A stretch of DNA of 64,000 nucleotides from Halodesulfurarchaeum sp. (lineage in GTDB: Archaea > Halobacteriota > Halobacteria > Halobacteriales > Halobacteriaceae): contig JAXHNL010000002.1 of NCBI GenBank assembly GCA_034520565.1, positions 192,001-256,000 of the forward strand. The letters are read 5' to 3'. This document shows positions 1 through 17,468 of this stretch, in pieces. Below the pieces are notes generated by a model that saw only the letters and a list, made by a program, of their open reading frames with translations, did no database searches and was not told where the DNA came from. The translations under genes were made by a program, and so were the position numbers. The first letter of the stretch is position 1, and every line of letters begins with the position of its first letter.

Positions 1-534
1 GCGGATCTCCGTTGCCCACTCGGCGACAGCGTCCGGGTCGAAGGTCATCTGGGTAACGATGTAATCGGCGTAGGGCTCCTTTTTCACGAGGTGTTCTCTG
101 AGGGTGTCGTCGTCGATGAACTGGTGACCCTCCGGATAGCCCGTAATGCCCACCCGTTCGAACTCGGTTCCGATCTCTTCGTCGAGATCGGTGAGCAACG
201 CGTAGGCGGAATCGTATGGGCCCTCGGGTTCCTCGTTGTCACCACCCGGAACGAAAATGTCCTCGATCCCGGCCCCCTTGAGCCGGTCGGTGAGTTCCTC
301 GAGGTGGTCCTCGCTCCGCACCGCGCGGGCGGCCACGTGTGTCGATACCTCGAAACCCATCTCGGCGAGTTCGATCGACCGGTCGATCGTCTCATCGACG
401 CCTTTGTCCGGAGAGGCGGTCAACGCGACCGTCGAGCCATCGGGAAGCTGTTTGGCCTCCTCGTACAGTCCCGAAAAGGGCAACAGTTCGTAATGCGGTT
501 CGGTCAGTAGTTCGCGGACGCCGTCCCGTGTCAT
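1..534 (-). CDS. metF: Methylenetetrahydrofolate reductase (MetF-type), 3' end runs off the window
   Basis: Not in the ORF track; read manually from ATG at 534: MTRDGVRELLTEPHYELLP...STHVAARAV...IFVPGGD...GITGYPEGH...YIVTQMTFD. These match the MTHFR motifs H-x-x-x-R, GGD, GYPEGH and TQ-x-x-F. Open to position 1. Confidence 0.85.
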   Translation of the reverse strand, partial: MTRDGVRELLTEPHYELLPFSGLYEEAKQLPDGSTVALTASPDKGVDETIDRSIELAEMGFEVSTHVAARAVRSEDHLEELTDRLKGAGIEDIFVPGGDNEEPEGPYDSAYALLTDLDEEIGTEFERVGITGYPEGHQFIDDDTLREHLVKKEPYADYIVTQMTFDPDAVAEWATEIR

Positions 535-686
535 GTGTGCTAGTTCTACCCGTGTCGAGGGTTTTACTCTTTGCCAAGCCGAAATTTAGGGGGCATTTAC
601 GGGACGGTGACGAGTCGGTCTAGAAAACCTCAAGGTGGGTTCCCGGGTAGTATACAGACGGCACGGACTCCGTGTTCGATCGACCA

Positions 687-1562
687 ATGGCATACATTAT
701 TGACGGCAACGAACTCGCGGACTCGATTCGCACAGACCTCGAAGACAGCGTACAGACCCTCGACGACGAGGGCGTTACCCCAGGTCTCGCCACCGTCCTG
801 ATGAGCGACGACCCGGCCAGTGAGACCTACGTCTCGATGAAACAGAAGGCCTGTGAGGAGATCGGCATGGAGAGTTTCCACGTCGAGATCGACCCGGAGG
901 CTCCCGCCGAGGAACTCTATGACACCATCGACGACCTCAACGCGGACCCGGAGGTTCACGGCATCCTCGTCCAGTTGCCGGTTCCGGACCAGGTCGATGA
1001 GAGCAAGGTCCTCGAGCAGATCGACCCGATGAAGGACGTGGACGGCTTCCATCCGACGAACGTCGGACTCATGGTGTCCGGAAACGCGCGGTTCAAGCCC
1101 TGTACGCCCCACGGCGTCCTCAAGATGATCGAGGACGCAGGCGTCGACACCGAGGGCAAGGACGTCACCGTCGTCGGCCGCTCGAACATCGTCGGCAAGC
1201 CGGTCGCAAACCTGCTCATGCAGAAGACGGAGTACGGCAACGCGACCGTGACGGTCTGTCATTCACGCACGGAGGACCTCGCGGAGAAGACCCGCAACGC
1301 CGACATCGTGATCGCGGCCGCCGGCGTCCCGGAGATGATCGACGGCTCGATGCTTTCGGAGGGCCAGACGGTCATCGACGTCGGCACCAACCGCGTCGAC
1401 GGCGAACTGGTCGGTGACGTCGACTTCGAGTCCGCAAAGGACGTCGTCGACGCCATCAGCCCGGTTCCGGGTGGCGTCGGCCCGATGACGATCACGATGC
1501 TCCTCTACAACACGGTCAAGGCCGCGAGCCTGCAGCACGACATCGACGTCGAACTGCCGTAG
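687..1562 (+). CDS. folD: Bifunctional methylene-THF dehydrogenase/cyclohydrolase
   Basis: Motifs YVSMKQKAC, GILVQLP, KDVDGFHP, PCTPHG, GRSNIVGKP, SPVPGGVGPMT; ATG at 687. Confidence 0.97.
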   Translation: MAYIIDGNELADSIRTDLEDSVQTLDDEGVTPGLATVLMSDDPASETYVSMKQKACEEIGMESFHVEIDPEAPAEELYDTIDDLNADPEVHGILVQLPVPDQVDESKVLEQIDPMKDVDGFHPTNVGLMVSGNARFKPCTPHGVLKMIEDAGVDTEGKDVTVVGRSNIVGKPVANLLMQKTEYGNATVTVCHSRTEDLAEKTRNADIVIAAAGVPEMIDGSMLSEGQTVIDVGTNRVDGELVGDVDFESAKDVVDAISPVPGGVGPMTITMLLYNTVKAASLQHDIDVELP

Positions 1563-1695
1563 GCACGATCGGTCTTTTCGCTGTTCTTCGGTCGGCACCC
1601 TGACCAGCGACCGCTCTCTCGGTGGCCAGCAAATCGCGTTTTCTCGAGTGGAACGACGATCCAAGAGAAAAACGAAAAATCCCGAGGTACTGTCG

Positions 1696-2664
1696 CTACT
1701 CTTTGGCGGCCGTGATGGCCTCGGTCAGTTCGGGAACGACCTCGTGGAGGTCGCCCACGATGGCGTAATCGCCCTTGTACATGATCGCCGCCTCGGAGTC
1801 GGTGTTGATAGCGAGGACGTTCTCCGCGCCCTTCGCACCGACCCAGTGCTGGACGGCGCCGCTGATGCCAGCGGCGATGTACAGGTCCGGCGAAATCTTC
1901 TGCCCGGTCTGTCCGATCTGGTCGTCGTGGGGACGCCACCCCTCGTCGACCGCAATGCGGGTCGCCCCGACGGCCGCGCCCTCGAAGACATCGGCCAGCG
2001 CTTCGATCTGGCCGAATTCCTCTTCGCCGCCGACGCCGCGGCCACCACCGACGACGATGCGGGCTTCCGGAAGCGGAACGCCTTCGACGTCGGCCTCCTC
2101 GGTCCGGTCGACTTTGACCTCGAAGGATGAATCGTCGACGTCCGGCTCGATCATCTCGACGACCGCTTCGGCGTCGCCGACGGCCTCGATCGGGAGTTCG
2201 TGATCCGGCGTCGAGAACACCTTCGTCTCGCCGTCCATCGTCGCGTGCTCGAGCAGGCTGCCACCCCAGCGGTGGCGGGTGAGTTCACAGGTTTCGCCGT
2301 CGGTCTCGATCTCGATGGTGTTCGCCGCCATCGCGTAGTCCCGCTTCGCACTGAGGTGTGCAAGCACCTCGTTTGCGGTATCGGTCCCGCCGCCGATGAC
2401 GGCCGACGGTCCGAGATCGTCGATCAGGTCGCCGAGCGCGTCCGCGCGGGCTTCCGGCGCGTAGGTCTCTGCCAACTCGCCCGTACAGACGTAGGCGGTG
2501 TCGACGCCGTATTCGCCGAGTCCGGCCGCGAGGGCTTCGCCGCCGAACATCGCAGCGGTCACGTCCTCGCCGACCTGTTCGGCCAGATCGCGGGCGAGAG
2601 TGAGCATCTCGAGGGACGTCTCGAGGATTTCGCCCTCTTTGTGTTCGATGAGTGTCAGCACCAT
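1696..2664 (-). CDS. etfA: Electron transfer flavoprotein alpha subunit
   Basis: Motifs VVGGGRG, QIGQTGQKISPDLYIAAGISGAVQHWVG, AINTD; ATG at 2664, directly downstream of etfB. Confidence 0.95.
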   Translation of the reverse strand: MVLTLIEHKEGEILETSLEMLTLARDLAEQVGEDVTAAMFGGEALAAGLGEYGVDTAYVCTGELAETYAPEARADALGDLIDDLGPSAVIGGGTDTANEVLAHLSAKRDYAMAANTIEIETDGETCELTRHRWGGSLLEHATMDGETKVFSTPDHELPIEAVGDAEAVVEMIEPDVDDSSFEVKVDRTEEADVEGVPLPEARIVVGGGRGVGGEEEFGQIEALADVFEGAAVGATRIAVDEGWRPHDDQIGQTGQKISPDLYIAAGISGAVQHWVGAKGAENVLAINTDSEAAIMYKGDYAIVGDLHEVVPELTEAITAAKE

Positions 2665-2665
2665 C

Positions 2666-3415
2666 TTAGAGCACCTCCAGTTCCTCGAGGACTTCGACGG
2701 CACGATCCACCGCCTCGGGGCCTTCGCCGAGGACTTCTGCCTCCTCGTCCTCCGACTCGGGCGTCTCGAGTTCCTGCATCTGCAGGCGGTCCGCGGTCTC
2801 GACCGGCTCGATGACTTCCAGTTCCGTCTTCTTGGCCTGCATCCGGCTCCGCATCGACGGGTAGCGCGGCGTGTTCAGGCCCTCCTTGACGGTGATAACT
2901 GCGGGCGTTTCGACTTCGAAGACTTCCGAGCCGCCGGGGACGTCGCGCTTGGCGATGGCCGTGTCCCCGTCGACTTCGAAGTCCTTGATGCCGGTGACGA
3001 CCGGGAGATCGAGCAGGTGGGCAACGCGAATGCCGACCTGATAGTTCGCGTTGTCTCCGGACTCGTTGCCGAAGAAGAGGAGATCGAAGTCCCGGTCCTC
3101 GACGGCGTCGGCGATGGCGGTGGCCGTCGACTCCGGCCCCCACTCTTCGCCGTCGGTTTCGAGGAGCATCCCCTCGTCGGCACCGCGGCCGATTCCTTCG
3201 TAAATCTGGTCCTCTATGTCCTCGGGGCCGAGACTCAGCACGGTCGACGTGCCGCCCTCCTCCTCGACTGTCTGGACGGCCTCCTCGATCGCACATTCCT
3301 CGTGTGGGCCCATCGTATACCCCACGGCGGAGGCGTCGACCGACTGTTTGTCGTCGGTCAGGACGATCTCTGCCCCGGTATCCGCGACGCGCTTGATACA
3401 GGCTAATGTTTCCAT
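2666..3415 (-). CDS. etfB: Electron transfer flavoprotein beta subunit
   Basis: N-terminal ACIKRVAD, AIEEAV, GADEG, GNESGD, NTPRYPS. Confidence 0.95.
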   Translation of the reverse strand: METLACIKRVADTGAEIVLTDDKQSVDASAVGYTMGPHEECAIEEAVQTVEEEGGTSTVLSLGPEDIEDQIYEGIGRGADEGMLLETDGEEWGPESTATAIADAVEDRDFDLLFFGNESGDNANYQVGIRVAHLLDLPVVTGIKDFEVDGDTAIAKRDVPGGSEVFEVETPAVITVKEGLNTPRYPSMRSRMQAKKTELEVIEPVETADRLQMQELETPESEDEEAEVLGEGPEAVDRAVEVLEELEVL

Positions 3416-3500
3416 AGTTGTGATAACGTGTAGTTAGTGACCGGTGGATGGCCCCGGACGCCCGAAAGGCGGACCCAGGAAAACTGACCGGTCAGTCAGT

Positions 3501-6035
3501 TTAGCTCAGGATCCGCTCGTTGCTCGGGTCGAACAGCGGGCGGCCGCCGACGACTTCGATCGTGACCGGATAGTCCTTCCCGAAGTACTCGACTTGCAGC
3601 TGCTTGCCCTCCTCGGCGACGTCCATCGGAATGTACGCCATCAGGATGTGCTTGCCGACGGAGGGGCCCGTCGCGGCGCTCGTGACGTAGGACCGGCGGC
3701 CCTCGTCGTCCATGAGCACCTCGCCGTCCATGTCTTTGACCGGCTCGCCACCGAGCGGGTAGCGTTCCTCGCCACCGTTCGGGGCGTGGTCGTCGACGGT
3801 CAGCATGCAGAGCTTGGCTGCGGGCTCTCCTTCGACCGCTTCCACGTAGGCGTCCTTGCCGATGAAGTCGGCGTCCTTGACGCCGTGGAAGTCGAGACCG
3901 GCCTCGACCGGGTTGTAATCGGTCTCAAGTTCGGCACCGAGCAGGCGGTAGCCCTTCTCCATGCGGCCGGTGGCACCGTAGACACCGGTCCCGACCGGAC
4001 GGAGATCGTACTCCTGACCGGCCTCGTAGATGGTGTCCCACAGACGACCGGTCTGCTCCATCGGCGCGTAGATCTCCCAGCCGAGTTCGCCGACGTAGGA
4101 GATACGCATCGCGAAGGCCTCGACGTCACCGATGTGGACCTGCTGTCCGGTGTAGGCCGGGAAGGCCTCGTCGGACATGTCCTCCTCGGTGATCTCCTGC
4201 ATGACCTTCCGGGCGTTCGGCCCCCAGACGCCCATCGTGCCCAGCGCGGAGCTCTTGGAGACGAGCTCGACTTGCATGTCGTCTTCCATGTGCTGGCGGA
4301 TCCACTGCTTGTCGTGGCCGGCGTCCCCGCCGCCGGTGATGAACCGGAAGCGGTCCTCGGCCAGTCGCACGACAGTCAGGTCAGCACGGAAGCCCGCTCC
4401 CTGGTCGAGAACCGGCGTGTAGACCAGTTTGCCAATGTCGACGTCCATCCGGCCGACGGTGAGCTTCTCGGCCATCTCGAGGGCGTCAGGGCCCTGGAGT
4501 TCGTAGATCCCGAAGCCCATGTCGCCGATCAGGCCGACGTTGTCCCGCATGTGCAGGTGCTCGGCCAGGATGATCGGTGACCACCAGCGGCGGTCCCATT
4601 CGTTCGGTCGGGAGAACTCGCTGATCGTCTCCTGGTACTTCTGGATCAGGTCCGCGTTGTCGCGGAACCAACGGGGTCGCTCCCAGCCGGCGGCCTCGAA
4701 GAACATCGGATCGAACTCCTCGAGGCGGTCGTGGAAGCCGGTCTGGCGGAGCGGCCGACCGGACATCCACTGCTCGGATGGGTGAATCGTACCGTAAATC
4801 TTGCGGAACCCTTCCTTCGAGCGCTCCTCGATGTAGCTCTTCGAGCGGCCGTATTCCTCGTAGCGGGCGATGTTCTCGCCCTCGAGGTCCACGTCGATTG
4901 CGCCGTAGCCTTGGGTCATCCACTTGGCCACTTCCTCGGCCAGCGCGGGTGCCTCCTTGATCCAGATGGCAGCGACCGACCACAGGTTGTCGAGTTCTTC
5001 GACCGGACCGATGACCGGCCCACCGTCGGCGGTCAGGGAGAGCAGGCCGTCGATCGAGTGCCGGATCCCCGCGTCGGGGTCGTCGAGGATCTCGGGCATG
5101 AGCTCGAGCGCGTGCTCCATGGACTCCTCGAAGGCGTCCTCGGTGAGCGGTGGCTGGGTCGGCGAGAGCGGCGCCTCGTCGATGGACGGAATGTCCTCGA
5201 CGTCCCACAGGATCGGGCGGTGGGAGTAGGAGCCGACCTCGATCTCGCTGCCGTGCTGGCGCTCGTACATCCGGTGGTCCATGTCCCGGACGATCGGGTA
5301 CTCGATGCCCTCGATGCCCTCGAACTGCTCGATCGGGCCCACGCTGATCATCTGGTGGACGGCCGGCGTGAGCGGGATGCGCGTGCCAGCCATCTCGGCC
5401 AGTTCGGGACTCCAGATCCCGGCGGCGATGACCAGGGTATCATCGACCTCGACGTTCCCGCGGTCGGTCTCGATGGCCGTGACTTCCTCGCCCTCGGTGA
5501 GAATGTCCGTCACTTCCGTGTTCGGGGAGACCGTCAGCGCGCCCATGTCCTTGGCGCGCTGGCGGCAGATCTCACCCCACTGAAGTGAGTCACACACACC
5601 GGCGTCGTCGAAGTAAACGGCGCCTTCGATGATGTCCTCGTTGATGTAGGGCACCATCTCTTTGACTTCGTCGGCGTCCAGCATTTCGGCGTGGCCACCG
5701 AAGGACTTCGACGACTGGACTCGCCGCCTGTTCTCCTCCATCTGCTCTTTCGTTCGAGCGACTTCCAGGCCACCGGACTCGGTGTAGACGCCGGCTTCCT
5801 TGTACTGCTCGATGGACTTGTATCCGAGCTCGGTGATCGCCTTGCCATGTGTCACCGGCATCAGGAAGTTCGACGCGTGGCCGGTCGATCCGCCGGGGTC
5901 CGGGAGGGGACCCTTGTCGACGAGAAGGATGTCTTCGACTCCCTGATCGGCGAGATGATATGCGAGACTGTTCCCCACGATACCGGCGCCGATAATTACT
6001 GTACCGGCGCTGTCGGGTAGTGTGTTTGAACTCAT
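3501..6035 (-). CDS. Dimethylglycine/sarcosine dehydrogenase-type flavoprotein (DAO FAD domain + GcvT folate-binding domain)
   Basis: 844 aa; GAGIVG dinucleotide motif, GSTGHA (covalent-FAD His of the DMGO/DMGDH family), GWERP, RISYVGELGWEIY, RMEKGY. Confidence 0.9.
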   Translation of the reverse strand: MSSNTLPDSAGTVIIGAGIVGNSLAYHLADQGVEDILLVDKGPLPDPGGSTGHASNFLMPVTHGKAITELGYKSIEQYKEAGVYTESGGLEVARTKEQMEENRRRVQSSKSFGGHAEMLDADEVKEMVPYINEDIIEGAVYFDDAGVCDSLQWGEICRQRAKDMGALTVSPNTEVTDILTEGEEVTAIETDRGNVEVDDTLVIAAGIWSPELAEMAGTRIPLTPAVHQMISVGPIEQFEGIEGIEYPIVRDMDHRMYERQHGSEIEVGSYSHRPILWDVEDIPSIDEAPLSPTQPPLTEDAFEESMEHALELMPEILDDPDAGIRHSIDGLLSLTADGGPVIGPVEELDNLWSVAAIWIKEAPALAEEVAKWMTQGYGAIDVDLEGENIARYEEYGRSKSYIEERSKEGFRKIYGTIHPSEQWMSGRPLRQTGFHDRLEEFDPMFFEAAGWERPRWFRDNADLIQKYQETISEFSRPNEWDRRWWSPIILAEHLHMRDNVGLIGDMGFGIYELQGPDALEMAEKLTVGRMDVDIGKLVYTPVLDQGAGFRADLTVVRLAEDRFRFITGGGDAGHDKQWIRQHMEDDMQVELVSKSSALGTMGVWGPNARKVMQEITEEDMSDEAFPAYTGQQVHIGDVEAFAMRISYVGELGWEIYAPMEQTGRLWDTIYEAGQEYDLRPVGTGVYGATGRMEKGYRLLGAELETDYNPVEAGLDFHGVKDADFIGKDAYVEAVEGEPAAKLCMLTVDDHAPNGGEERYPLGGEPVKDMDGEVLMDDEGRRSYVTSAATGPSVGKHILMAYIPMDVAEEGKQLQVEYFGKDYPVTIEVVGGRPLFDPSNERILS

Positions 6036-6544
6036 TTATTGTACCTCGGGACTGTCCACGTGCGATCTCCATGGTGCGGCGATCGGGAGGATCGTCGCAG
6101 GGTGTGAACCGGCCCCACATTCGTTTGTCTAGTCGGTTTTGCACATATAACTAACGAAGTGCGTGATAAACCATGTATAAAAGCATCGTGCCATCAAATA
6201 GAGGATAGCGTTTCACGTTATAGAAAACCGAAAGGCGGCGACGGCCCAAAGAAGTCGGGGAACCGATATGTCCTCGCCTCGGCGACAGGCCAACTCCAGT
6301 GTCGCGGTCGGAGTTTCGCATGGTAGCGTGTGACAATCTCCAAAAGTATCAGTTCGAAAGAATAGTAAATCAGGCACGATCGCCGGGAATCGGAACCACG
6401 GGATTGGAGCCGATCGAACTCGAATCGATTCCCTGGGACACGAACGGTACGCGGGTATCGAGTCGACTCCCTCGCTGTGTGACGATGGCGAGGGACTGGC
6501 CGAAACCGGTGGACTTCTCAACCCGTCCCCCGTACCGATCATTC

Positions 6545-8314
6545 GTGACCGGCGAGTCAGTTCCGCCCCGTCGAACGGCGATGCTCGAAGTTGACCTCAC
6601 CGAGCGGACGGTCCGTCGCGAGGAGATTCCGGTGGCGTGGCGGCAGCAGTTCATCGGCGGGAAAGGACTCGGGGCCCGATACCTCTACGAGCGGACCGAA
6701 GCGGGGGTCGACCCGCTCGGTCCAGGAAACGCCCTCCTGTTCATGACCGGGCCGATCTCGGGAGTGATCCCTGGTGAACCCCGCTATGCGGCGATCACGA
6801 AGTCGCCACTCACCGGCACGTTTCTCGACTCCTACAGCGGCGGTGACTTTGCCGCCCACCTGGCGGGGAGCCTCGCCGACACAATGGGCATCATCGTCAC
6901 CGGGCAGGCGTCAGAACCGGTGGCGCTGGTCGTCTCGAACGGTGACGTGTCGATCGAGTCCGCGACCGAATGGGGCGAGGACGTCGAGACGGCCTGTGGG
7001 GCCTATCCGGACGCCAAAGTCGCGTGTACGGGCCCGGCCGGCGAAAACGAGGTGGTCTACGCCACGATCGCCTCGGACGGCGGCGACCATCACGCGGGTC
7101 GTGGGGGCGCGGGCGCGGTCATGGGTTCAAAGCGGCTCAAGGCCGTCGTCGCGAGAGACCCACCGCCAGAGGGACTGGAATCGCTCAGAGCCGAGTACGA
7201 GGAGCGGTACGGCGACGGGGCGACCGACGGCTGGCACCGGGCCAGTGAAACCGTCGAATCGGTCGACTTCGCTGACGAGGTCGGGGCCCTCTCGACACGC
7301 GGCTGGCAGGAGAGCACCTTCGAGGGCACCGACAGCATCGGAATCGAAGCCGTCGAGTCCGCAGCGGACGCGCGCGAACACGAGGACAGTCCCATCCCGG
7401 GCGGGTTCCAGGTCGAGGTCGGCGACGAGACGAGCACGCCCCGCGGCGGGACCCAGATGACCCTCGGTGCCGGGCTGGGAATCGACGACTTCGAGGACGT
7501 GGCGACCCTCGGGCTCACCTGCGATCGGCTGGGCGTGGACATCATCGGCGTGGGCAACGCGATCGCGTGGGCGATCAGAGCCGGCACGGAAGGCGTGATC
7601 GACTTCGAGGGAGAGTTCGGCGACCTCGCAGCCGCCGTTTCACTCGCCGAGGACATCGCAAACCGGGACGGCGAACTCGGAGACGCGCTCGCGGACGGGA
7701 TCGACAACGCGGCCGCCCGTTTCGGGGGCGAAGACCTGATCCCGACCGTCAAGGGCATGGAACTGCCCTCGTATGACCCGCGCCGGGCACCGAGCATGGC
7801 GCTCGCGTACGCGACGAGTGACCGGGGCGCCTGCCACCGACGGGCGCGACCGATCGAGACGGCCGTCTTCGAGCCGGACACGGACGAGCCCGTGCGTCGC
7901 GCCCGCGAGGTCATCGCCGAACAGGACTTCCGGTCGTTGCTCTGGAGTCTCATCGCCGACGACTTCACGGAGACCCTCTTCGCGGGCGATTTCGGCTCGG
8001 AGTGGCTCGGGGCGGTCGGCATCGATCTCTCGCCGGCGGAGCTCAGGCGGGCCGGCACCCGTATCTGGACGATGACCCGACTGTACAACGTCCGCGAGGG
8101 GTTCGACCGAGCGGACGACGAGTTACCGCCGGTCCTCGAAGAACCCGTTTCCGACGGTCCGGGGGCGGGTGAGGCAGTCTCGATGGAGTCCTTCGAGGCG
8201 ATGCGCGAGGCCTATTACGCCGAACGCGGCTGGGACGAGCGGGGTGTCCCGACGGCCGATCTACTCGAGGGCCTCGGGCTCGACGGCATCGACGTGCCCG
8301 CCGAAATCGACTGA
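6545..8314 (+). CDS. aor: Aldehyde:ferredoxin oxidoreductase (tungsten-pterin AOR) family protein, atypical (no Fe-S Cys motif)
   Basis: IGGKGLGARYL, TKSPLTG, GPAGEN, AGRGGAGAVMGSKRLKAV, DRLGVD, VKGMELPSYDPR, RGACH, YYAERGWD. Start is GTG 6545 or ATG 6581. Confidence 0.85.
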   Translation: MTGESVPPRRTAMLEVDLTERTVRREEIPVAWRQQFIGGKGLGARYLYERTEAGVDPLGPGNALLFMTGPISGVIPGEPRYAAITKSPLTGTFLDSYSGGDFAAHLAGSLADTMGIIVTGQASEPVALVVSNGDVSIESATEWGEDVETACGAYPDAKVACTGPAGENEVVYATIASDGGDHHAGRGGAGAVMGSKRLKAVVARDPPPEGLESLRAEYEERYGDGATDGWHRASETVESVDFADEVGALSTRGWQESTFEGTDSIGIEAVESAADAREHEDSPIPGGFQVEVGDETSTPRGGTQMTLGAGLGIDDFEDVATLGLTCDRLGVDIIGVGNAIAWAIRAGTEGVIDFEGEFGDLAAAVSLAEDIANRDGELGDALADGIDNAAARFGGEDLIPTVKGMELPSYDPRRAPSMALAYATSDRGACHRRARPIETAVFEPDTDEPVRRAREVIAEQDFRSLLWSLIADDFTETLFAGDFGSEWLGAVGIDLSPAELRRAGTRIWTMTRLYNVREGFDRADDELPPVLEEPVSDGPGAGEAVSMESFEAMREAYYAERGWDERGVPTADLLEGLGLDGIDVPAEID

Positions 8315-8557
8315 ACCGTTCCCGGTCCCGTTACTCGTGGGAATCGAACGCCACGACACCCGTTCGGCAGGCCCCGTGATCCGGCCAACAAATTCAGTTT
8401 GTTTAATGAATGCTAGATTGTATAAACGACGTTCCAGTTGTATCCGAACAAAACCGCATGCAAGCGCCGGGGTCCATCGCGTCAATTATCGAAGGGTTCG
8501 ACCGGACTTTCAAAACCTTTATTCTTGCTACAGGGACCTATTTAGATAGGGATTCAC

Positions 8558-9232
8558 ATGACAGACGAGGACTCAGCCGACGACCTCGACCCCATCATCG
8601 AGGACATTCAACAGGCGATCATCGACCTCGAGGAGGACAAAACGGCCGAACTGACCCAGAAGGCCATCGACATGGACATCAGTCCACTGATCATCCTCCA
8701 GGAGGGGCTGACCAACGGGGTCAGGACGGTCGGCGACAAGTTCGGCAGGGGGGAAGTCTTCCTGCCCGAACTGGCCATGTCCGCTGACTGTATGCGAGCA
8801 GGGGTCGACCTCGTCGAACCATTGTTGGACGAAATGGATCTCGCCGACGAGGACACGGCCGGGAAGGTCATCCTCGGGACCGTCGACGAGGACATCCACA
8901 ACATCGGGAAGAACATTCTGCTCACGATGCTGAAGGCAAACGGCTTCGACGTCATCGACCTCGGCGTCGAGATCCCCAACGAGGACTTCGTCCAGGCCGT
9001 CAAGGACGAGGAGCCCGACATTCTGGGCATGTCCGCACTCATGACCATGACGATGGACCACCAGGAAGAGGTCATCGAACTCCTCGAGGAAGAAGGCATT
9101 CGCGATCAGGTCAAGGTCATGGTCGGTGGCGCACCGACCTCCGAAGAGTGGCGGGACGAAATCGGTGCGGACGGCTACGCTGACAACGCCGACGCGGCCG
9201 TGGAAAAGGCGATCGAGCTGCTCACCAAGTAG
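8558..9232 (+). CDS. Stand-alone corrinoid (B12-binding) methyl-carrier protein, MtbC/MttC/MtgC-like
   Basis: N-terminal helical cap (GDKFGRGEVFLPEL) plus the B12 motif D-I-H-N-I-G ... S-A-L-M-T ... MVGGAP. Confidence 0.92.
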   Translation: MTDEDSADDLDPIIEDIQQAIIDLEEDKTAELTQKAIDMDISPLIILQEGLTNGVRTVGDKFGRGEVFLPELAMSADCMRAGVDLVEPLLDEMDLADEDTAGKVILGTVDEDIHNIGKNILLTMLKANGFDVIDLGVEIPNEDFVQAVKDEEPDILGMSALMTMTMDHQEEVIELLEEEGIRDQVKVMVGGAPTSEEWRDEIGADGYADNADAAVEKAIELLTK

Positions 9233-9417
9233 CGCAATTCTTGACAGCGTCGACAGTTTTATTATAACCTATCAGTTGCAAAACCGCCGGAATGCAGCCG
9301 CGTCCCGAACCGATCGTTCGATCATGACGAAAAAAGAATAAATAATTTCATAAACCCCGAGTCGCATCGTTAGTGCGTATCGGACCCACAACCAACGGTT
9401 GGGTGACGATAACACAC

Positions 9418-11045
9418 ATGAGTACAGGAAACAAAGGTGCAATCGGCACGTTTATCGACGAACTGGACTGGGTAACGTATGGTGTCGGCCTCGGGGTATC
9501 GATCCTCGCGATCCTCGCGCTGATCCTCTCCCCGGAGGCTGCAAGACAATTCATCAACAACGCCTTCACCTGGATGACACAGCAGCTCGGGTGGGCCTAC
9601 CTGCTCGTGGGCTTTTCACTCGTGCTTTTCGCGCTCTTCCTGGTGTTGGGCCCGTGGGCGACATTCGTATCGGGAAACCCGACGAGGAGCCGGAACATTC
9701 GTTCAAATCCTACTTCGCGATGCTCTACTCGGCTGGCATCGCGGCCGGGATCGTGTTCTGGGGTCCGGCTGAAGCGATTTCCCACTACGAACTCTACGTC
9801 CCACCGGTTAACAGCCCGCTGGGCGGGGCCGAGGGAGGAACCCCGGCAGCCGCAGTCGACGCGATCACGTACACGTTCTTCCACTGGGGGATTTCGGCGT
9901 GGTCGTTCTACGTGCTGCTCGCGCTGCCCATCGCCTTCTTCGCCTACCGCTATGGCGCACCGATGCGGATTTCGACGGTGCTCGCCCCGTTCCTCGGAAC
10001 GGACAACCTCGATGGCGCGCTCCCGAAGGTGATCGACATCCTCGGCGTGTTCGCGACCATCGGCGGGATCGCCACCTCGCTCGGATTCGTCGGAGGCCAG
10101 TTCCTGGCCGGGCTGAATTACATCTTCGGCATCCCGACCACTGACGTCCTCACCATCGTGATGATTACCGGCTTGACGGCCTTCTTCACCATCTCGGCCG
10201 CACTCGGCGTGGAGAAGGGGATCAAGCGGGTCTCGAACTTCAACATGATGGTGTTCTTCTTCCTGATGATCGTGGTATTCGTCTTCGGCCCCACCGCCTA
10301 CATCCTCGACATCGGGGTCGAATCCATCGGTGCATACCTCAACAACTTCATCCAGGTGAGCACGTTCACCAACTCCGCCGGCGTCGATCCGACCGGGTTC
10401 GTGCCCCTCTGGACCGTCTTCTACTGGGCCTGGTGGTTCGCGTGGGCCCCGTTCGTCGGCCTGTTCATCGCCCGCATTTCGAGGGGTCGAACGGTCCGAC
10501 AGATGGTCGGGACCGGCGTCATCGCCTCGACCGGCGTCACCATCCCGTGGTTCGCCGCCCTCGGTGGCTCCTCGATCTGGATGGAGATCAACGACGTCGC
10601 ACCGATCGTCGACACCTACAACAACATCGGGTACGACGGCCTCGGCTACCCGCTGTTCGAAGCACTGCTGCCGGGCGTGCTGGGCGTGTTCCTCATGCTC
10701 GCGTTCCTGGTGCTCGTGACGACGTTCTTCGTCACCTCTGCTGACTCCTCGACGCTCGCGCTGGGCATGCTCACGACGGGTGGCAAACGGAAACCCTCGA
10801 CGATCAACCGCACCATCTGGGGCGTCACGATGGGTGCCCTCGCGTCGCTGCTCCTCGTCTTCGGTGGGGCAAACGCGTTGCAGACCGCCTCCGTGTTGAC
10901 CGGTGGTCCATTCGCACTCGTCCTGATCCTCGCCGTCTGGGCGACGATCCGGACCTTCCGACAGGTCGAGCCCGTGTTCCTCACCGAGAAGGAACGCGAC
11001 GAAAGCGCAAGGGAGATCGACCCGAGCGGCGGTCTGGACGACTGA
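9418..11045 (+). pseudogene. BCCT-family (betaine/carnitine/choline) transporter with a 1-nt frameshift near 9656-9658 (possibly a sequencing error)
   Basis: First frame MSTGNKG...LGWAYLL...LGPW; second frame GDIRIG...AMLYSAGIAAGIVFWGPAEA...FHWG...YWAWWFAWAPFVGLFIARISRGRT. One extra G (tgg ggc gac) joins them. Confidence 0.9.
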
Positions 11046-11062
11046 TCGGCCGAAAATAATTC

Positions 11063-11086
11063 GGATTTTTTCTTCCGTTTTTCCCC
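11063..11086 (+). terminator. Candidate oligo-T archaeal terminator after the BCCT gene
   Basis: ggattttttcttccgtttttcccc just after the stop, between convergent genes. Confidence 0.45.
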
Positions 11087-11119
11087 GCCGAGCGACGGCA
11101 CCGGCGACGGAGCAAACAG

Positions 11120-13522
11120 TTAGGCCCGGTCGACGCCGCCGCTCGTCCGCACGGCTGCCAGGTTTTCCGCCACGTCGTGAACGCGGAGCGCTGCTGCCCC
11201 TCGCTCTGCGGCCATGGCGGAGGCGACGACCGTCGGAAGCAGCCGGTCCCCGTCCCCGTAGCCGATCCCGGCAAAGAGGGACTTTTGGGAATGGGCGAAG
11301 AGCACGGGCAGCCCCAGGCCCGTCAGTTCGTACAGCCGATCGAGCAACTCGAAGTTCTCCGCGGGCGTCTTGCCGAAGCCGATCCCCGGATCGGCGACGA
11401 TCTGCTCGCGGTCAATGCCAGCCCGCTCGGCCAGCCGAACCCGCTCGTTGAGATCGCTGATGACGTCTGCGACCACGTCGTCGTAGGGAACCTCGGCGTC
11501 GGGGTCGACTGGCGTATTGATGCTGTGCATCAAGATGACCGGCACGTCGTACTCGGCGACGACGGCACGCATCTCGGGGTCTTCGAGACCGTCCTGGTCG
11601 TTGATGATGTCCGCGCCGGCTTCGATCGCGGCTTCGGCGACCTCGGCCTTGCGGGTGTCGACCGAGATGGGCACGTCGAGCTCCTGCAGGGCCTCGAGCA
11701 CCGGCACGATCCGATCGATCTCCTGTTGAATTTCGACCGGGTCGGCCCCGGGCCGGGTGCTCTCGCCGCCGACGTCGAGGACATCCGCTCCCTCCGCAAC
11801 GAGCTGCCGGGCCCGCTCGAGGGCCTGTTCGACAGTGTCGTACTCCCCGCCGTCGTGGAACGAATCGGGCGTGATGTTGAGAATGCCGAGCAGGGCCGGC
11901 GTTCGCCCCGTTTCGACCGGCAGTTCCGTGGAGTGGGGCTCGAGTGCCGCCCGAACGTCGTTCGGAAGTGTCGGACAGCCCGTTCGTGAGTCGACTCGCT
12001 CCAGGAACCGCTCGAAGGTCGCTCGGGTGCCCGAAAGGAGAACGTCCACGAATCGGGCCACGTCAACGAGCGCCGAGACCTGACACTCCCCGCCGACCCG
12101 GAGCATCTCCTTTTGGACCATGCGCGCACACGGCCGGGGAAGACGGGTCCGGAGCGTGACGTGTCGCCGCGAATCGGGGTCTGACGGGTCCGCTGCCACG
12201 TCGAGTTCGGCGACTGGCGACGTCCCGTCGGCCTCGCTGGCCAGCTTCACATCGGTCGGAACGACCGTTCGGGTCCATCGCTGTCTGGCTTCCGAGACCG
12301 TGTAGAGCGAGCCGGCGACGACGACCAGATCGTCGGGGCCAGCCAGGTCGATGGCTCGGTCAACGCTCTCGAGCACGGACGGAACGGGCGTGGCGTCCAC
12401 CCCGACCGCCTCGAAACCCTTCGCAAGTACCTGCTCGTCTTCGGCGCGTTTCGTGTCCGGGCGACAGGTGAAGACCTGATCGGGGCGGGGGAGGGCCTCG
12501 ATCATCGCCCCCTGATCCTTGTCGTGCATGGCCCCGAAGACGAGATAGAGGTCCGCGTACTCGAGATCCGAGATCACGCGTCCCAGCTGTTCGCTCGCGT
12601 CCGGGTTGTGTGCGCCGTCGAGCAGCACCGTCGGGTTCCGTTCCATCACGTCGAACCGGCCCGGCCACTCGGCCTTCCGGAGCCCGCGGGCGATCGTGTC
12701 CCCATCGACGGTGGTGACCTGACTGGCCAGTGCGACGGCCACGCCGGCGTTGAGGGCTTGATGGCGACCGGGTTGTGGGATCTGTGCCACGAGTTCGATG
12801 CCGACACCCCGGATCGAAACCGTCTGTGCATCGACTCCGTCCCGCTCGAGCGATTCGACCACCACGTCGGTCCCCTCGGTCCCGACCGTCAGCAGCTCGC
12901 TCCGCTCCCGGAGGGTCTCGAAGACGTTCTCGGCCGCCGTGACGAGTGGGCCGTCGTCTGGAGCGACGTGGACCTTATCGCGAGCGATCTCCTCGACGGT
13001 GTCCCCGAGGACGTCGGTATGTTCGAGTGAGACGTTCGTGACACAACTCGCAACCGGCGAGACCACGCTCGTCGCGTCGTACTTGCCGCCGATGCCGACC
13101 TCGAGGATGGCCACGTCGACGTCCCGGCGGTCGAAGTACCAGATAGCGAGGGCGGTCGTCGCCTCGAAGTGCGTGAGCGGTTCGTCGCGAGCGGCCCCGC
13201 TGTCGATCCCGTCGCGGTAGGTTTCGACGAACTCGGTCACGGCCGATTTCGGGATCTTCCGCCCGTTGACCTGGATACGCTCTCTGAACTCGTCGAGTTC
13301 GGGCGAGGTGTAGAGCCCGACGTCGAGGCCGGCCTCACGCAAGATCGAATCGAGCATCCGCGCCGTGCTCCCCTTCCCGTTCGACCCCGCGACCTGGACG
13401 AAGTCCGTGCCCGTGTGAGGCGAACCGGCGCCCTCGAGAAAGTTCCGCGTGGCATCGGTCCCGAGCTGGGTTCGGAACCGTCGCAAGCCGAGGAGGTACG
13501 TCGCCGCCTCGCTGTAGTGCAT
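11120..13522 (-). CDS. folCP: Folylpolyglutamate synthase / linker / dihydropteroate synthase fusion
   Basis: ATG 13522 MHYSEAA; FolC motifs VAGSNGKGS, LEVGIGG, WPGRF, LDGAHN; FolP motifs GILNITPDSFHDGG, GGESTRPG, DPGIGFGK, RVHDV. Confidence 0.93.
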   Translation of the reverse strand: MHYSEAATYLLGLRRFRTQLGTDATRNFLEGAGSPHTGTDFVQVAGSNGKGSTARMLDSILREAGLDVGLYTSPELDEFRERIQVNGRKIPKSAVTEFVETYRDGIDSGAARDEPLTHFEATTALAIWYFDRRDVDVAILEVGIGGKYDATSVVSPVASCVTNVSLEHTDVLGDTVEEIARDKVHVAPDDGPLVTAAENVFETLRERSELLTVGTEGTDVVVESLERDGVDAQTVSIRGVGIELVAQIPQPGRHQALNAGVAVALASQVTTVDGDTIARGLRKAEWPGRFDVMERNPTVLLDGAHNPDASEQLGRVISDLEYADLYLVFGAMHDKDQGAMIEALPRPDQVFTCRPDTKRAEDEQVLAKGFEAVGVDATPVPSVLESVDRAIDLAGPDDLVVVAGSLYTVSEARQRWTRTVVPTDVKLASEADGTSPVAELDVAADPSDPDSRRHVTLRTRLPRPCARMVQKEMLRVGGECQVSALVDVARFVDVLLSGTRATFERFLERVDSRTGCPTLPNDVRAALEPHSTELPVETGRTPALLGILNITPDSFHDGGEYDTVEQALERARQLVAEGADVLDVGGESTRPGADPVEIQQEIDRIVPVLEALQELDVPISVDTRKAEVAEAAIEAGADIINDQDGLEDPEMRAVVAEYDVPVILMHSINTPVDPDAEVPYDDVVADVISDLNERVRLAERAGIDREQIVADPGIGFGKTPAENFELLDRLYELTGLGLPVLFAHSQKSLFAGIGYGDGDRLLPTVVASAMAAERGAAALRVHDVAENLAAVRTSGGVDRA

Positions 13523-13640
13523 GTTCCGGATTTGGAGAACCGGTCGCTTTAACGTACCGGAGACGGCGATCCACAGATCGACCCCGGTGTCGTTCGCAAA
13601 CCGGAACAGGCTTAACCCGACTCCGGACTGCAGGTCTCCC

Positions 13641-14375
13641 ATGGCGGTGGCCATCATCACGGTCGGGGACGAACTCCTGGCCGGGGAAACCGAGAACACC
13701 AACGCGACGTGGCTGGCCCGCCGGATCACCGACCGCGGTGGGGACGTCCGTGAGATCCTGACCGTCGGCGACGATCGGGCCACGATCGCCTCGCGGGTCG
13801 AATCGCGGGAATCGCAATTCGACCGGGTGATCGTCACCGGCGGGCTCGGCGGGACCCCGGACGACCTGACCATGGCGGCCGTGGCAGACGCGCTCGACCG
13901 AGATCTCGAGGTCGACCCGGAGGTCCACGAGGCCGCCCGGGCGTCCTCGGAAGCCTTCGTCGAGGCCCATCCCGATCTGGCCGAGAAATACGAGCTGGGC
14001 CTGGACGCCGCGCGCGTCGCCGAAACGATCGCGGGCGGGCGGATCATCGAAAACCCGGAGGGACTCGCGAACGGCTGTGTCGCTGATGGCGTGTATGTCC
14101 TGCCGGGCGTTCCGAGCGAGTTGCGAGCCACGTTCGAACAGGTCGCCGGGGAATTCGCCGGCGAGAAACGCGTGGAGACGCGGTTCACGGACGCCCCGGA
14201 AGGCGTGCTGGGACGGCACATCGCCGACCTCGAGTCGCGATTTGCCGTACGGGCCGGGAGCTACCCGGGTGAGCGAACGGATCGCAACCGGGTCCGCGTA
14301 ATCGGCGACGATGCCGAATCCGTGACGGCCGCCCTCGACTGGCTGGGGGAACGGGTGGCTCTCGAACGAGAATAG
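13641..14375 (+). CDS. CinA N-terminal-like (molybdopterin-binding/MocF domain) protein
   Basis: TVGDELLAG..NTNATWL, TGGLGGTPDDLT, LPGVPSE; no C-terminal PncC domain. Confidence 0.85.
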   Translation: MAVAIITVGDELLAGETENTNATWLARRITDRGGDVREILTVGDDRATIASRVESRESQFDRVIVTGGLGGTPDDLTMAAVADALDRDLEVDPEVHEAARASSEAFVEAHPDLAEKYELGLDAARVAETIAGGRIIENPEGLANGCVADGVYVLPGVPSELRATFEQVAGEFAGEKRVETRFTDAPEGVLGRHIADLESRFAVRAGSYPGERTDRNRVRVIGDDAESVTAALDWLGERVALERE

Positions 14376-15350: not shown

Positions 15351-16406
15351 ATGCGTTACACACGACAACTGCTCGCCGTGGCACTCGCGCTGTTAGTCCT
15401 GACAACCGGGGCCGTCGGCGTCATGGGCACGGTAACCGCACAGGAGGAGACGACAACCGAATCGTTTCCGCTCACCGTGACTGACGCGACGGGCGAGGAG
15501 ATGACGATCGAGGAGCCACCCGAGCGGGTGGTGACCCTCGCACCGAGCGCGGCCCAGACCATGTACGAGATCGGCGCCCAGGACAAGGTCGTCGGGATCT
15601 CCGACCGGGGAACGTATCTCGACTGGGACGAGGAGAAGGCCATTATCTCGAGTGGCGGCACCGTGAACACGGAGAAGATCGTCAACCAGACCCCCGATCT
15701 GGTGCTCGCCCCGGACATCATCGGCGATGACAAGGTCGAGCAGCTCCGGAGTGCTGGCCTCACCGTCTACAACTTCGCGGGCGCGACCTCGATGGACCAC
15801 GTCGTGGAGAAGACCCGGCTGACGGGCCAGCTCGTCGGCGCGAGTGACGGCGCGAACGCCCGTGCCGACGAGATGGCGGAATCACTCGAGATCGTCCGCA
15901 CGGCCGTCGAGGGTGAGGAGCGTCCGACCGCACTCTACCTGCTCGGTGGCGGGTTCACGGCCGGTGACGAGACCTTCATCAACAGCGTCATCGAGACCGC
16001 AGGCGGCACGAACATCGCCGCGAAGCACTTTGCCGGCTACTCGATTATCAGCGAGGAGGTCGTCGCCAACGAGAGTCCCGAGTACCTCCTCGTGAGCAAC
16101 GAAGCGCCCGAGATGGTCCCGAAGACAGACGCGTATAACGGCACCCACGCCGTGCAGAACGACCAGATCATCGGAATCGACGCGAACTACCTGAACCAGC
16201 CCGCGCCGCGGACCGTCCAGGTCGTCGAGGACCTGGCGAGCACGTGGCATCCCGACGCCTACGAGTCCGCCGTCGAGAGCTTCGCCGAGGAGACGACCGA
16301 GAGCGCGGCCACGACCGCCGTGACCACGGAGACCGAAGCGCCCGGCTTCGGCCCGATCGTCGCCCTGCTCGCGATCGTCGGGGCGGCGTTCCGGCTTCGA
16401 GAGTGA
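15351..16406 (+). CDS. btuF: Cobalamin/corrinoid ABC substrate-binding protein with PGF-CTERM anchor
   Basis: Signal peptide, PERVVTLAPS, NQPAPR, Thr-rich linker then PGFGPIVALLAIVGAAFRLRE; directly upstream of cob salvage genes. Confidence 0.85.
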   Translation: MRYTRQLLAVALALLVLTTGAVGVMGTVTAQEETTTESFPLTVTDATGEEMTIEEPPERVVTLAPSAAQTMYEIGAQDKVVGISDRGTYLDWDEEKAIISSGGTVNTEKIVNQTPDLVLAPDIIGDDKVEQLRSAGLTVYNFAGATSMDHVVEKTRLTGQLVGASDGANARADEMAESLEIVRTAVEGEERPTALYLLGGGFTAGDETFINSVIETAGGTNIAAKHFAGYSIISEEVVANESPEYLLVSNEAPEMVPKTDAYNGTHAVQNDQIIGIDANYLNQPAPRTVQVVEDLASTWHPDAYESAVESFAEETTESAATTAVTTETEAPGFGPIVALLAIVGAAFRLRE

Positions 16407-16481
16407 GGTGGTGACCGCACCCCTCGCGGGACCACCGGACCGACCGACTGATATCCCACGCGCCGAAAACGCGAGGACGAC

Positions 16482-17468
16482 ATGGCAGCGATAGCCTCCC
16501 TGGCGGTCGCCGTCGCCTTCCTGCTCGATGCCACCGTCGGGGAGCCGCCCGAATCGGTCCATCCGGTCGCCAAACTCGGCGCGGCGATCGCCGTCCTCGA
16601 TCATCCCGGCCCGGCACCCCACCTCTATGGGGCGACTGTCGCGCTCGTCGTTCCCCTCCTCGCGGCGGGTCTCGCGGCACTTCCCGTCTGGCTCCTTGCG
16701 CCCGGCTACCCTGTTCTGGCCGGGGTGCTGGCCGGGACAATCCTCTTTACGACCGTGAGCCTCGACATGCTCACGGAGCTCTCGAGTACCGTGATCGGTG
16801 AAACTGATGCCGACCTCGAGCGCGCGAAAACCGACGTCGTGGGACTCGTCGGGCGTGACACCGCTGACCTCTCCGCAGCCGAGGTCCGAAGTGCCGCGGT
16901 CGAAAGTCTCGCGGAGAACCTCGCGGACGGGCTCGTCGGCCCGCTGCTGGCGTTCGCGTTCGGCAGCTTCGTCTCGCTCCCGGTCGCCGTCGGGGCCGCC
17001 GCGTGGGTCAAGGCAGTCAACACGCTCGATTCGATGCTCGGCTACCGCGATCGACCCCACGGCACCGCCAGTGCCCGTCTCGACGACGTGGTCGAGTGGC
17101 TTCCGGCACGGCTGAGCGCGGGCCTCATTGCCAGTGCCGCCCTCGACCCATCAGCACTCACGACCGCCCGGACCTGGGCCCACGAGCCAGCCTCACCGAA
17201 CTCGGGCTGGCCGATGGCGACGATGGCCACAGCAATCGGCGTCAGGCTGCACAAATCCGACCAGTACGATCTCAACCCGACCGCCCGACTGCCGACCGTC
17301 GCGGACGCTCGAGGGGCCATTACGGTCGGACACCGGGCCGGGCTGCTGGCGTTCGCCCTCGCGGCCGGAATCGCCTGGATCGGGGGCAACGCCGGCTTGC
17401 TGGCAGGCGGGGTCGGCTGGGCCGGCGACCTGCTTTCCCTCCGTGGCGGGGTGATCGAATGGTTCTGA
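16482..17468 (+). CDS. cbiB: Adenosylcobinamide-phosphate synthase
   Basis: GEPP..HPV, LVGRDT, ESLAENLADG, VNTLDSMLGY, ARLDD, SPNSGWP. Confidence 0.93.
   Translation: MAAIASLAVAVAFLLDATVGEPPESVHPVAKLGAAIAVLDHPGPAPHLYGATVALVVPLLAAGLAALPVWLLAPGYPVLAGVLAGTILFTTVSLDMLTELSSTVIGETDADLERAKTDVVGLVGRDTADLSAAEVRSAAVESLAENLADGLVGPLLAFAFGSFVSLPVAVGAAAWVKAVNTLDSMLGYRDRPHGTASARLDDVVEWLPARLSAGLIASAALDPSALTTARTWAHEPASPNSGWPMATMATAIGVRLHKSDQYDLNPTARLPTVADARGAITVGHRAGLLAFALAAGIAWIGGNAGLLAGGVGWAGDLLSLRGGVIEWF

Follow-up and report, generated by a model that had tools for sequence, protein, structure and literature searches.

A candidate module for tetrahydrofolate-based glycine betaine catabolism in a Halodesulfurarchaeum genome

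Could a sulfur-respiring haloarchaeon strip the methyl groups of glycine betaine and oxidise them to CO2? Betaine is a major osmolyte of hypersaline sediments, and the available text of PMC9796771 describes fermentation to trimethylamine (TMA) and methanogenesis as its known anoxic fates. The question is raised by the left 13.5 kb of a 64,000-nucleotide stretch of Halodesulfurarchaeum sp. DNA (the window; G000:C2:192001-256000), which belongs to a 1.86-Mb genome (G000) of two contigs and 80.7% completeness. A previous reading of the window from its letters (the original prediction) had proposed a hybrid B12- and flavin-dependent demethylation of betaine and dimethylglycine, a proposal that gene content, substrate-pocket residues and conservation now support. 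We consider it probable that this segment is the right half of a module of ~28 kb (C2:177953-205520) encoding tetrahydrofolate (THF)-based catabolism of glycine betaine without an O2-requiring step. Genes were identified with Pfam and NCBIfam profile searches, applying the curated NCBIfam cut-offs, and nearest solved relatives are the best sequence matches in the PDB, scored in bits.

In the pathway we propose, a BCCT carrier would import betaine, and MttB1, a methyltransferase of the MtgB type, would transfer one methyl group to the Co(I) of a free corrinoid protein (CoP), leaving dimethylglycine. An MtgA-like enzyme of the MtrH family would hand this methyl group from CoP to THF, while the activase RACo would spend ATP to re-reduce corrinoid fallen to Co(II). 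MetF, FolD, Fhs and two cytoplasmic formate dehydrogenases (FdhA) would oxidise methyl-THF to CO2, with the Fhs step yielding one ATP. A flavoenzyme resembling dimethylglycine dehydrogenase (DMGDH) would take a further methyl group as methylene-THF and pass its electrons to the adjacent electron-transfer flavoprotein (ETF) EtfAB. Glycine could enter the glycine cleavage system, of which GcvT and GcvP are encoded elsewhere in the genome. Finally, reducing equivalents would feed a respiratory chain, the acceptors of cultured congeners being sulfur, thiosulfate and dimethyl sulfoxide (DMSO). We infer the direction of flux; sarcosine may also be demethylated, and a cupin and an enzyme of the aldehyde:ferredoxin oxidoreductase (AOR) family may take part.

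All nine genes that the original prediction had listed in window positions 1-13522 were recovered in place with Pfam and NCBIfam. Profiling C2:172001-192000 with the same collections revealed the other half of the module. Its genes are, from left to right (lengths in amino acids, aa):

C2:177953-179998, plus strand: FdhA1
C2:180046-180450, plus strand: cupin
C2:180554-182017, plus strand: MttB1, with no internal stop (homologs 487 aa)
C2:182412-184115, plus strand: Fhs
C2:184294-186366, plus strand: FdhA2
C2:186406-186747, plus strand: small membrane open reading frame (ORF)
C2:186749-187480, minus strand: YqeC-like gene
C2:187534-188496, minus strand: AstE/AspA-like gene
C2:188647-190602, plus strand: RACo activase, 651 aa
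C2:190682-191590, minus strand: MtrH/MtgA-like methyltransferase
Window 1-534 (whole gene C2:191698-192534), minus strand: 3' part of MetF, a short divergent methylene-THF reductase
Window 672-1562, plus strand: FolD, methylene-THF dehydrogenase/cyclohydrolase (NF010764, 515.2 bits, cut-off 477)
Window 1696-2703, minus strand: EtfA, large ETF subunit with ETF_alpha and ETF domains
Window 2666-3415, minus strand: EtfB, small ETF subunit (ETF, 105.8 bits)
Window 3501-6035, minus strand: DMGDH-like flavoenzyme, 844 aa, with DAO, FAO_M, GCV_T and GCV_T_C domains (folate-binding GcvT domain)
Window 6299-8314, plus strand: AOR-family W/Mo aldehyde:ferredoxin oxidoreductase, with AFOR_N and AFOR_C domains and matches in the PDB
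Window 8558-9232, plus strand: free corrinoid protein (CoP), MtgC-like, 224 aa, with B12-binding_2 and B12-binding domains
Window 9399-11045, plus strand: BCCT importer (BCCT, 477.7 bits)
Window 11120 to ~13520, minus strand: FolC-FolP fusion, with Mur_ligase_M, Mur_ligase_C and Pterin_bind domains (TIGR01499 and TIGR01496 above cut-off)

The original prediction had directed the search for the remaining components to the left of position 1, where MttB, the MtrH/MtgA-like protein, RACo, Fhs and two FdhA were indeed all located within 14 kb. Among the findings that would refute it, it had named the lack of any MttB/MtgA-type partner in the genome; both partners lie left of the window.

The enzyme that would open the pathway is MttB1, one of three MttB-family genes in the genome, which ends 10 kb before the window. 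Its MTTB TIM-barrel extends over the full length of the protein (PF06253, 466.2 bits, model positions 25-496 of 500). It is of the non-pyrrolysine kind, since there is no stop inside the match and the pyrrolysine model TIGR02369 gives 304.9 bits, below its cut-off of 525. The best solved relatives are the glycine betaine methyltransferase entries 9yce and 2qne (389.6 bits; Desulfitobacterium MtgB), followed by 4yyc (265.7 bits) and by pyrrolysine MttB (146.4 bits). According to the available text of Picking et al. 2026 (PMC13080624), betaine is bound in MtgB by Y97, R312, H348 and F356 (D. hafniense numbering), an F356Y variant has Km and Vmax near those of the wild type, and MtcB, MtpB, MthB and MtyB do not retain the aromatic pair. 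The corresponding residues of MttB1 are Y148, R361, H397 and Y405, in the numbering of a 530-aa long ORF and counted along the PDB-match alignment with a chain-index offset of 2. By this alignment MttB1 keeps the glycine betaine pocket of MtgB as Y/R/H/Y. When 120 MttB homologs and the three paralogs of the genome itself were aligned with MAFFT, the YRHY pocket was present in 87 of the 123 sequences, and the other two paralogs differed (GRHY in MttB2, RRNF in MttB3). The homologs include proteins from 'Haloarculaceae archaeon H-GB1-1' and 'H-GB2-1', names that hint at betaine enrichments and for which no paper was found.

The other members of the relay are recognisable by family, fold and motif. 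CoP passes the model TIGR02370 (227.4 bits, cut-off 215.3), matches both corrinoid-binding domains in Pfam (B12-binding_2, 73.1 bits; B12-binding, 107.5 bits), and carries the motifs DIHNIG (DxHxxG), SAL (SxL) and GG. The MtrH-like protein has the MtrH fold (PF02007, 238.8 bits), and its best PDB match, 6sj8, is a methylcorrinoid:tetrahydrofolate methyltransferase. It has many hypersaline relatives at identities of at least 62%, the nearest ones outside the haloarchaea being those of an MSBL1 archaeon (50%) and of Bathyarchaeia (41-45%). RACo contains all four Pfam domains expected of the family, namely the [2Fe-2S] ferredoxin, linker, middle and ASKHA C-terminal domains. The best family model for the BCCT carrier is that of glycine betaine uptake (NF047988, 421.7 bits), ahead of BetT (291.1 bits) and of the CaiT type (238 bits).

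The flavoenzyme would link this relay to the second demethylation. Its best PDB match is 1pj5, an N,N-dimethylglycine oxidase (441.6 bits over residues 12-842), followed by mammalian DMGDH (313.5-318.5 bits), with aminomethyltransferases at only ~105 bits. The nearest solved chains of the neighboring EtfA include CarE and LctC (151.7-125.8 bits), both of which we take to be bifurcating, with the Paracoccus and human ETF immediately below (124.5-121.6 bits); EtfAB may bifurcate electrons. A second EtfAB is encoded elsewhere in the genome beside a gene resembling that of ETF-QO, and we infer a link that conveys electrons from ETF to quinone. Furthermore, a Psr-like operon lies 50 kb upstream (C2:138430-142517).

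As regards the fate of the folate-bound methyl groups, the original prediction had them oxidised on THF, and MetF, FolD, Fhs and two FdhA were found in a single module as this would demand. Fhs (796.8 bits, cut-off 652) and the two FdhA (720.3 and 774.4 bits, cut-off 666.25) exceed the curated cut-offs of their families. MetF is more divergent: the fragment passes PF02219 (MTHFR, 35.3 bits, cut-off 24), while MetF gives 49.3 bits with TIGR00676 and 57.7 bits with TIGR00677 against cut-offs of ~300, and its best PDB match is a methylene-THF reductase of 288 aa (7xg9, 96.4 bits). Acetyl-CoA synthase (CdhC, PF03598) was found neither in the 80.7% complete genome nor in the related genomes G004, G010, G020 and G394 (98-99% complete), while the same search was positive in two methanogen controls. 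Consequently, methyl groups on folate would not proceed to acetyl-CoA and must be either oxidised or used for biosynthesis. The presence of Fhs and two FdhA inside the module points to oxidation with a gain of ATP.

Conservation indicates that the grouping of these genes has meaning. In the congener G010, assembled as one contig of 2.09 Mb, the same order extends from FdhA1 to FolCP and includes AOR, CoP and BCCT. In G394, which belongs to another family, 13 genes of the module are found in another arrangement within ~20 kb (EtfA, EtfB, DMGDH, cupin, RACo, MetF, MtrH, FdhA, Fhs, MttB, FolD, CoP, BCCT), in a cluster that lacks AOR, YqeC, AstE and FolCP. Given this synteny in one genome and reclustering in the other, the grouping is not due to chance. 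MttB1 itself is 91-94% identical to its counterparts in three Halodesulfurarchaeum metagenome-assembled genomes (MAGs; 5 confirmed loci among 73 pattern matches), in line with the placement of the host in this genus. Across 401 Halobacteria genomes, G000 included, the MtrH-like protein was found in five (G000, all three congeners, and G394). The MTTB family occurs in 12, of which 11 exceed the cut-off, and DMGDH-like proteins occur in 128 (E<=1e-100). In nine of the ten other genomes with an MTTB protein above cut-off, the MttB gene lies 2-16 kb from a DMGDH-like gene, the place of the gene in the tenth, G073, not being listed.

The complete corrinoid set has a narrower distribution than the genes that surround it. 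Partial loci in three further genera (L020 in G022, L021 in G376 and L022 in G326) combine BCCT, EtfAB, DMGDH, a FolC-like gene, Fhs and MttB, with FdhA and AOR in addition in G376, and contain no CoP, RACo or MtrH. With the queries used, the genomes G022, G376, G326 and G073 yielded neither an MtgC-type corrinoid protein nor a RACo at any place. Since these other genera hold MttB, DMGDH and EtfAB without CoP and RACo, the full corrinoid set is the rare part of the module. The MttB proteins of the four genomes are thus 'orphan', and that of G073 (G073:C10:279303-280709) has one in-frame TAG. A different arrangement is seen in L015, from a Halobacteriales MAG, where positions 2592-9719 hold a compact set of MttB, a core-MetE-like gene (Meth_synt_2), RACo, MtrH and CoP without Fhs or Fdh. 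An ortholog of CoP with 74% identity is present in both the G394 and the L015 clusters. By its gene content, this five-gene set is a methionine-type variant of the relay.

Two genes of the segment appear to be peripheral. AOR was present in the clusters of two of the five lineages examined, Halodesulfurarchaeum and G376, and we predict that it is accessory to the module; its true start is probably later than position 6299, because the domains begin at residue 95. A FolC-like gene adjoins the cluster in four of the five lineages, including G022, G376 and G326. In our genome, a tblastn search gave no real second copy of folCP. The gene is apparently the sole one and therefore probably provides a housekeeping supply of folate.

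How firmly can the catabolic assignment be held? Several observations weigh against it. The proteins of the relay and the carrier fall short of the curated models for known betaine systems: CoP is below both MtgC models (NF047995, 224 bits vs a cut-off of 310; NF047996, 197.9 vs 370), the MtrH-like protein below the MtgA equivalog NF047990 (248.6 vs 550), RACo below AcsV NF040756 (452.8 vs 800) and RamA TIGR04270 (99.2 vs 500), and BCCT, with its 421.7 bits, below the NF047988 cut-off of 650. By these profiles they are relatives, and not certified equivalogs, of the curated MtgA, MtgC, betaine-BCCT, AcsV and RamA. The module comprises six or more transcription units, with genes on both strands. 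The genome has a single DMGDH-like gene, so that a sarcosine step is at most possible, and the nearest solved relative of its product is an O2-using oxidase. In addition, electrons at the level of ETF (~0 mV) cannot reduce sulfur unaided. The core-MetE-like gene of L015 means that the relay can also serve methionine synthesis. Lastly, another interpretation of part of the cluster has been published, and the growth tests in the available text of Sorokin et al. 2017 (PMC5437934) name 13 failed donors, with betaine not among them.

That published interpretation makes the locus part of a formate-centred housekeeping one-carbon (C1) metabolism. In it, cytoplasmic FdhA oxidises formate; Fhs, FolD and MetF interconvert formate and methyl-THF to supply purine and thymidylate synthesis as well as methylation; EtfAB bifurcates electrons for FdhA; and the flavoenzyme is the T protein of glycine cleavage. 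Sorokin et al. 2017 (PMC5437934) so read HTSR_1736, 1739, 1740 and 1746-1750 of H. formicicum HTSR1, assigning them to FdhA (1736), Fhs (1739), FdhA (1740), MTHFR (1746), FolD (1747), EtfAB (1748-49) and 'glycine cleavage T' (1750). These tags match the order of genes in our genome, down to the two genes that fill the first gap and the five that fill the second, so that HTSR_1736-1750 is apparently the same cluster. Counting along this order, MttB would presumably be HTSR_1738, RACo 1744, the MtrH-like protein 1745, AOR 1751, the corrinoid protein 1752 and BCCT 1753. A rise of cytoplasmic FdhAs in thiosulfate-grown cells, which the available text of that paper reports, speaks for the formate interpretation, as does the closer proximity of EtfA to CarE and LctC, presumably bifurcating, than to the Paracoccus or human ETF. 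However, it leaves MttB, CoP, the MtrH-like protein, RACo and BCCT unexplained, all of which travel together into the rearranged cluster of G394. The supposed T protein is the 844-aa protein combining DAO and GcvT domains, far closer to dimethylglycine oxidase than to aminomethyltransferases, and a separate GcvT/GcvP exists elsewhere in the genome. We thus regard formate metabolism as an unlikely account of the whole module; note however that for Fdh and Fhs the formate and betaine explanations are not exclusive. About equally unlikely is an anabolic relay, in which betaine would be a donor of methyl and C1 units for methionine, purines and methylation but no electron donor, the organism being a lithoheterotroph with formate or H2 as its source of energy. 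Aerobic marine bacteria use MtgB/C/D for both betaine demethylation and methionine synthesis in the available text of Mausz et al. 2025 (PMC12478193), cultured congeners require yeast extract as carbon source in that of PMC5437934, and in L015 a core-MetE-like gene is joined with MttB, RACo, MtrH and CoP. The present cluster has no MetE-like gene and instead possesses Fhs and two FdhA, which would dispose of C1 units as CO2 with a gain of ATP. Moreover, all characterised DMGDH-EtfAB pairs are, to our knowledge, catabolic, which counts against an anabolic role.

The least probable of the alternatives, in our estimation, retains the chemistry and changes the substrate to another quaternary amine such as choline, proline betaine, carnitine, gamma-butyrobetaine or an unknown one. 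In the available text of Picking et al. 2026 (PMC13080624), each of these amines is served by a member of the MttB superfamily; the MtgC, MtgA and betaine-BCCT models all remain below cut-off, and the last pocket residue is Y instead of F. Opposing this, the pocket retains its Y/R/H/aromatic pattern, with a substitution that is wild-type-like in MtgB and an aromatic pair that MtcB, MtpB, MthB and MtyB do not conserve. An enzyme that would consume dimethylglycine is adjacent in our genome and in nine others, and the carrier scores best with the betaine model (421.7 bits vs 291.1 and 238). Betaine catabolism on THF is hence the explanation that we retain as probable.

The role of O2 deserves separate consideration. 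The genome contains a full-length haem-copper oxidase subunit I (COX1; G000:C2:1504487-1505812, 484.5 bits), which is also present in the congener G020 and was found in neither G004 nor G010. The members of the genus are described as strict anaerobes that test oxidase-negative: cultured Halodesulfurarchaeum strains showed no growth at 0.1-5% O2 and were oxidase-negative in the available text of Sorokin et al. 2017 (PMC5437934). Strict anaerobiosis of the host is consequently not assured, a further point against the catabolic assignment as we have worded it. An oxic or micro-oxic role is possible, because the nearest solved flavoenzyme uses O2 and the genome has COX1. Conversely, the flavoenzyme would presumably act as a dehydrogenase, given its adjacency to EtfAB and the lack of COX1 in the closest congeners, G004 and G010. 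The claim of the original prediction that demethylation proceeds without O2 thus stands for the predicted enzymes and for congeners without oxidase, and does not extend securely to this genome with its full COX1.

A broader hypothesis is more tentative, and we hold it somewhat short of probable: the organism would be a respiratory methylotroph in which betaine methyl groups are fully oxidised on THF to CO2 with sulfur, thiosulfate or DMSO (O2 being possible in oxidase-bearing species), in which three further corrinoid methyltransferase sets probably treat other methylated compounds likewise, and in which DMGDH and ETF carry degradation beyond dimethylglycine. If true, the main hypersaline osmolyte would at salt saturation have a third fate in addition to methanogenesis and fermentation to TMA. 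Should the module work as proposed, betaine would be an object of competition for sulfur-respiring haloarchaea, which would mineralise the methyl groups with no formation of trimethylamine or methane, and the physiology of a genus thought limited to formate and H2 would be wider. A corrinoid relay would feed complete oxidation on THF in an archaeon that is neither methanogen nor acetogen, and a published cluster would be reinterpreted, its central genes having previously been left unread.

Other corrinoid methyltransferase loci occur in the same contig. A second island, 30-44 kb left of the window (G000:C2:147572-162162; L010, L006), comprises a RACo of 661 aa, three methyltransferases of the URO-D family, two corrinoid proteins, a Pterin_bind (MeTr-like) methyltransferase, an MFS carrier, a DUF1638 protein and an IclR regulator; from these genes it looks like an O-demethylase or a system of the methanol/methylthiol type feeding THF. 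A region of lower GC content at third codon positions (GC3; G000:C2:32408-43388, L008) contains MttB2, a betaine-type binding protein (OpuAC), a URO-D methyltransferase and a corrinoid protein. MttB2 possibly suffers from a frameshift or assembly error, because near model position 450 the match to the family continues in another frame. MttB3 (G000:C2:127647-129101, L009), with its RRNF pocket, has 30% identity to MttB1 and adjoins VWA/CoxE-like and AAA/CbbQ-like genes and a lipoate ligase.

Genes related to cobamides are found right of the cluster, with a binding protein of the Peripla_BP_2 family, CbiB and a CobQ with a long N-terminal extension coming first, followed by a BtuFCD-like ABC system and CbiQ. 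These and the gene bordering the module are:

Window 13521-14375, plus strand: CinA/MoCF-like gene, on the strand opposite to the 5' part of the long folCP ORF
Window 15351-22015: Peripla_BP_2, CbiB and CobQ
Window 34513-37597: BtuFCD-like system
Window 41586-42545: CbiQ

The host is by its sequence a salt-in halophile, with an acidic proteome (median predicted pI of 4.70 for 77 called ORFs, which include a few spurious ones), and its GC-rich genes pose a trap for gene calling based on ORF length. Open frames of high GC3 with basic, low-complexity products were observed at L005:14563-15654, at L005:15699-16646 and at window 13522-14221 (minus strand), and such frames overlie real genes as antisense or out-of-frame artefacts. 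Two of the rejected candidates left of the window were of this nature: a '363-aa unknown protein', basic, of non-haloarchaeal composition and without Pfam match, and the 320-aa N-terminal extension, likewise basic and without Pfam match, of a '967-aa RACo' whose real length is 651 aa. Similarly, in the long folCP ORF that reaches position 14221, the first ~233 codons are spurious and antisense to the CinA-like gene. The end of the cluster at 13522 in the original prediction is about right, because the extension of folCP beyond it is spurious. The only other tblastn match of folCP (C2:1610697-1611209) aligns to this antisense N-terminus and was discarded. The assignment of the cupin as a dimethylsulfoniopropionate lyase was also dropped, its matches being to an uncharacterised cupin (36.5 bits) plus weak ones.

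Some remaining features of the region complete the description. No promoter motif common to nine intergenic regions was found, the best 8-mers occurring in three regions, as in shuffled controls, and Rfam searches of the window and L005 gave four tRNAs and no riboswitch. Two stretches of the window have low GC content (30001-34000 and 44001-46000; 0.54-0.55 vs ~0.65), the second of which encloses a gene of the volactin family (44511-45545), and few ORFs were called at 29.4-32.9 kb. At 38221-39624 (minus strand), a protein of 467 aa fuses a chlorite-dismutase-like domain to an ABM monooxygenase domain.

How much of this is new? The original prediction had cautioned that betaine-using anaerobic haloarchaea may already have been reported; no haloarchaeal corrinoid betaine pathway turned up in the literature covered, which does not extend to subscription journals. 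The terms corrinoid, betaine, dimethylglycine, MtrH, cobalamin and B12 have 0 occurrences each in the main text of the description of HTSR1 (Sorokin et al. 2017, PMC5437934). The available text of this paper does mention traces of methanethiol in sulfur-reducing cultures, which as circumstantial evidence are compatible with active methyl-corrinoid chemistry. Already known are the B12 relay for betaine in Desulfitobacterium, methanogens and aerobic marine bacteria, and DMGO-like (dimethylglycine oxidase-like) genes beside BCCT in haloarchaea. Relative to the literature found, what appears to be new is a complete predicted relay in a haloarchaeon, in one conserved module with DMGDH-EtfAB and a route from THF to CO2, as well as the occurrence of the module in a cultured genus whose published physiology omits the use of betaine.

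The closest known counterpart of the relay is the MtgB/MtgC/MtgA system of Desulfitobacterium hafniense with its RamA-type activase. Both have a non-pyrrolysine MttB whose betaine pocket is the same, a free corrinoid protein of the His-on type, a methylcorrinoid:THF methyltransferase of MtrH fold and an activase of RACo type. They differ in the host, here archaeal and salt-in, and in the scores with the curated equivalog models, here below cut-off. Betaine demethylation in Desulfitobacterium is not known to go beyond dimethylglycine, whereas the present relay is joined in a conserved module to DMGDH-EtfAB and to MetF, FolD, Fhs and two FdhA, without acetyl-CoA synthase. Among archaea, the MtgB of Methanolobus vulcani, in the available text of Creighbaum et al. 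2019 (PMC6855144), is also a non-pyrrolysine MttB acting on betaine with a cognate corrinoid protein; its methyl group proceeds to coenzyme M and methane, whereas here it would proceed to THF and CO2. In Ruegeria pomeroyi, MtgBCD performs the first demethylation of betaine with B12 in a respiring organism that is neither acetogen nor methanogen, as we propose here. The available text of Mausz et al. 2025 (PMC12478193) adds that phylogeny separates its cobalamin domain from the domains of anaerobes and archaea, and that the system also makes methionine, unlike the present one, in which the THF methyltransferase is of MtrH type and no MetH activation domain was found in the genome. For the second demethylation, the dimethylglycine oxidase of Arthrobacter globiformis and mammalian DMGDH share the four-domain architecture of our flavoenzyme. 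In haloarchaea, DMGO-like genes near BCCT genes are described for four organisms in the available text of Anderson et al. 2011 (PMC3102087); unlike the DMGO of these aerobic haloarchaea, the flavoenzyme of Halodesulfurarchaeum sits with EtfAB and a complete corrinoid relay.

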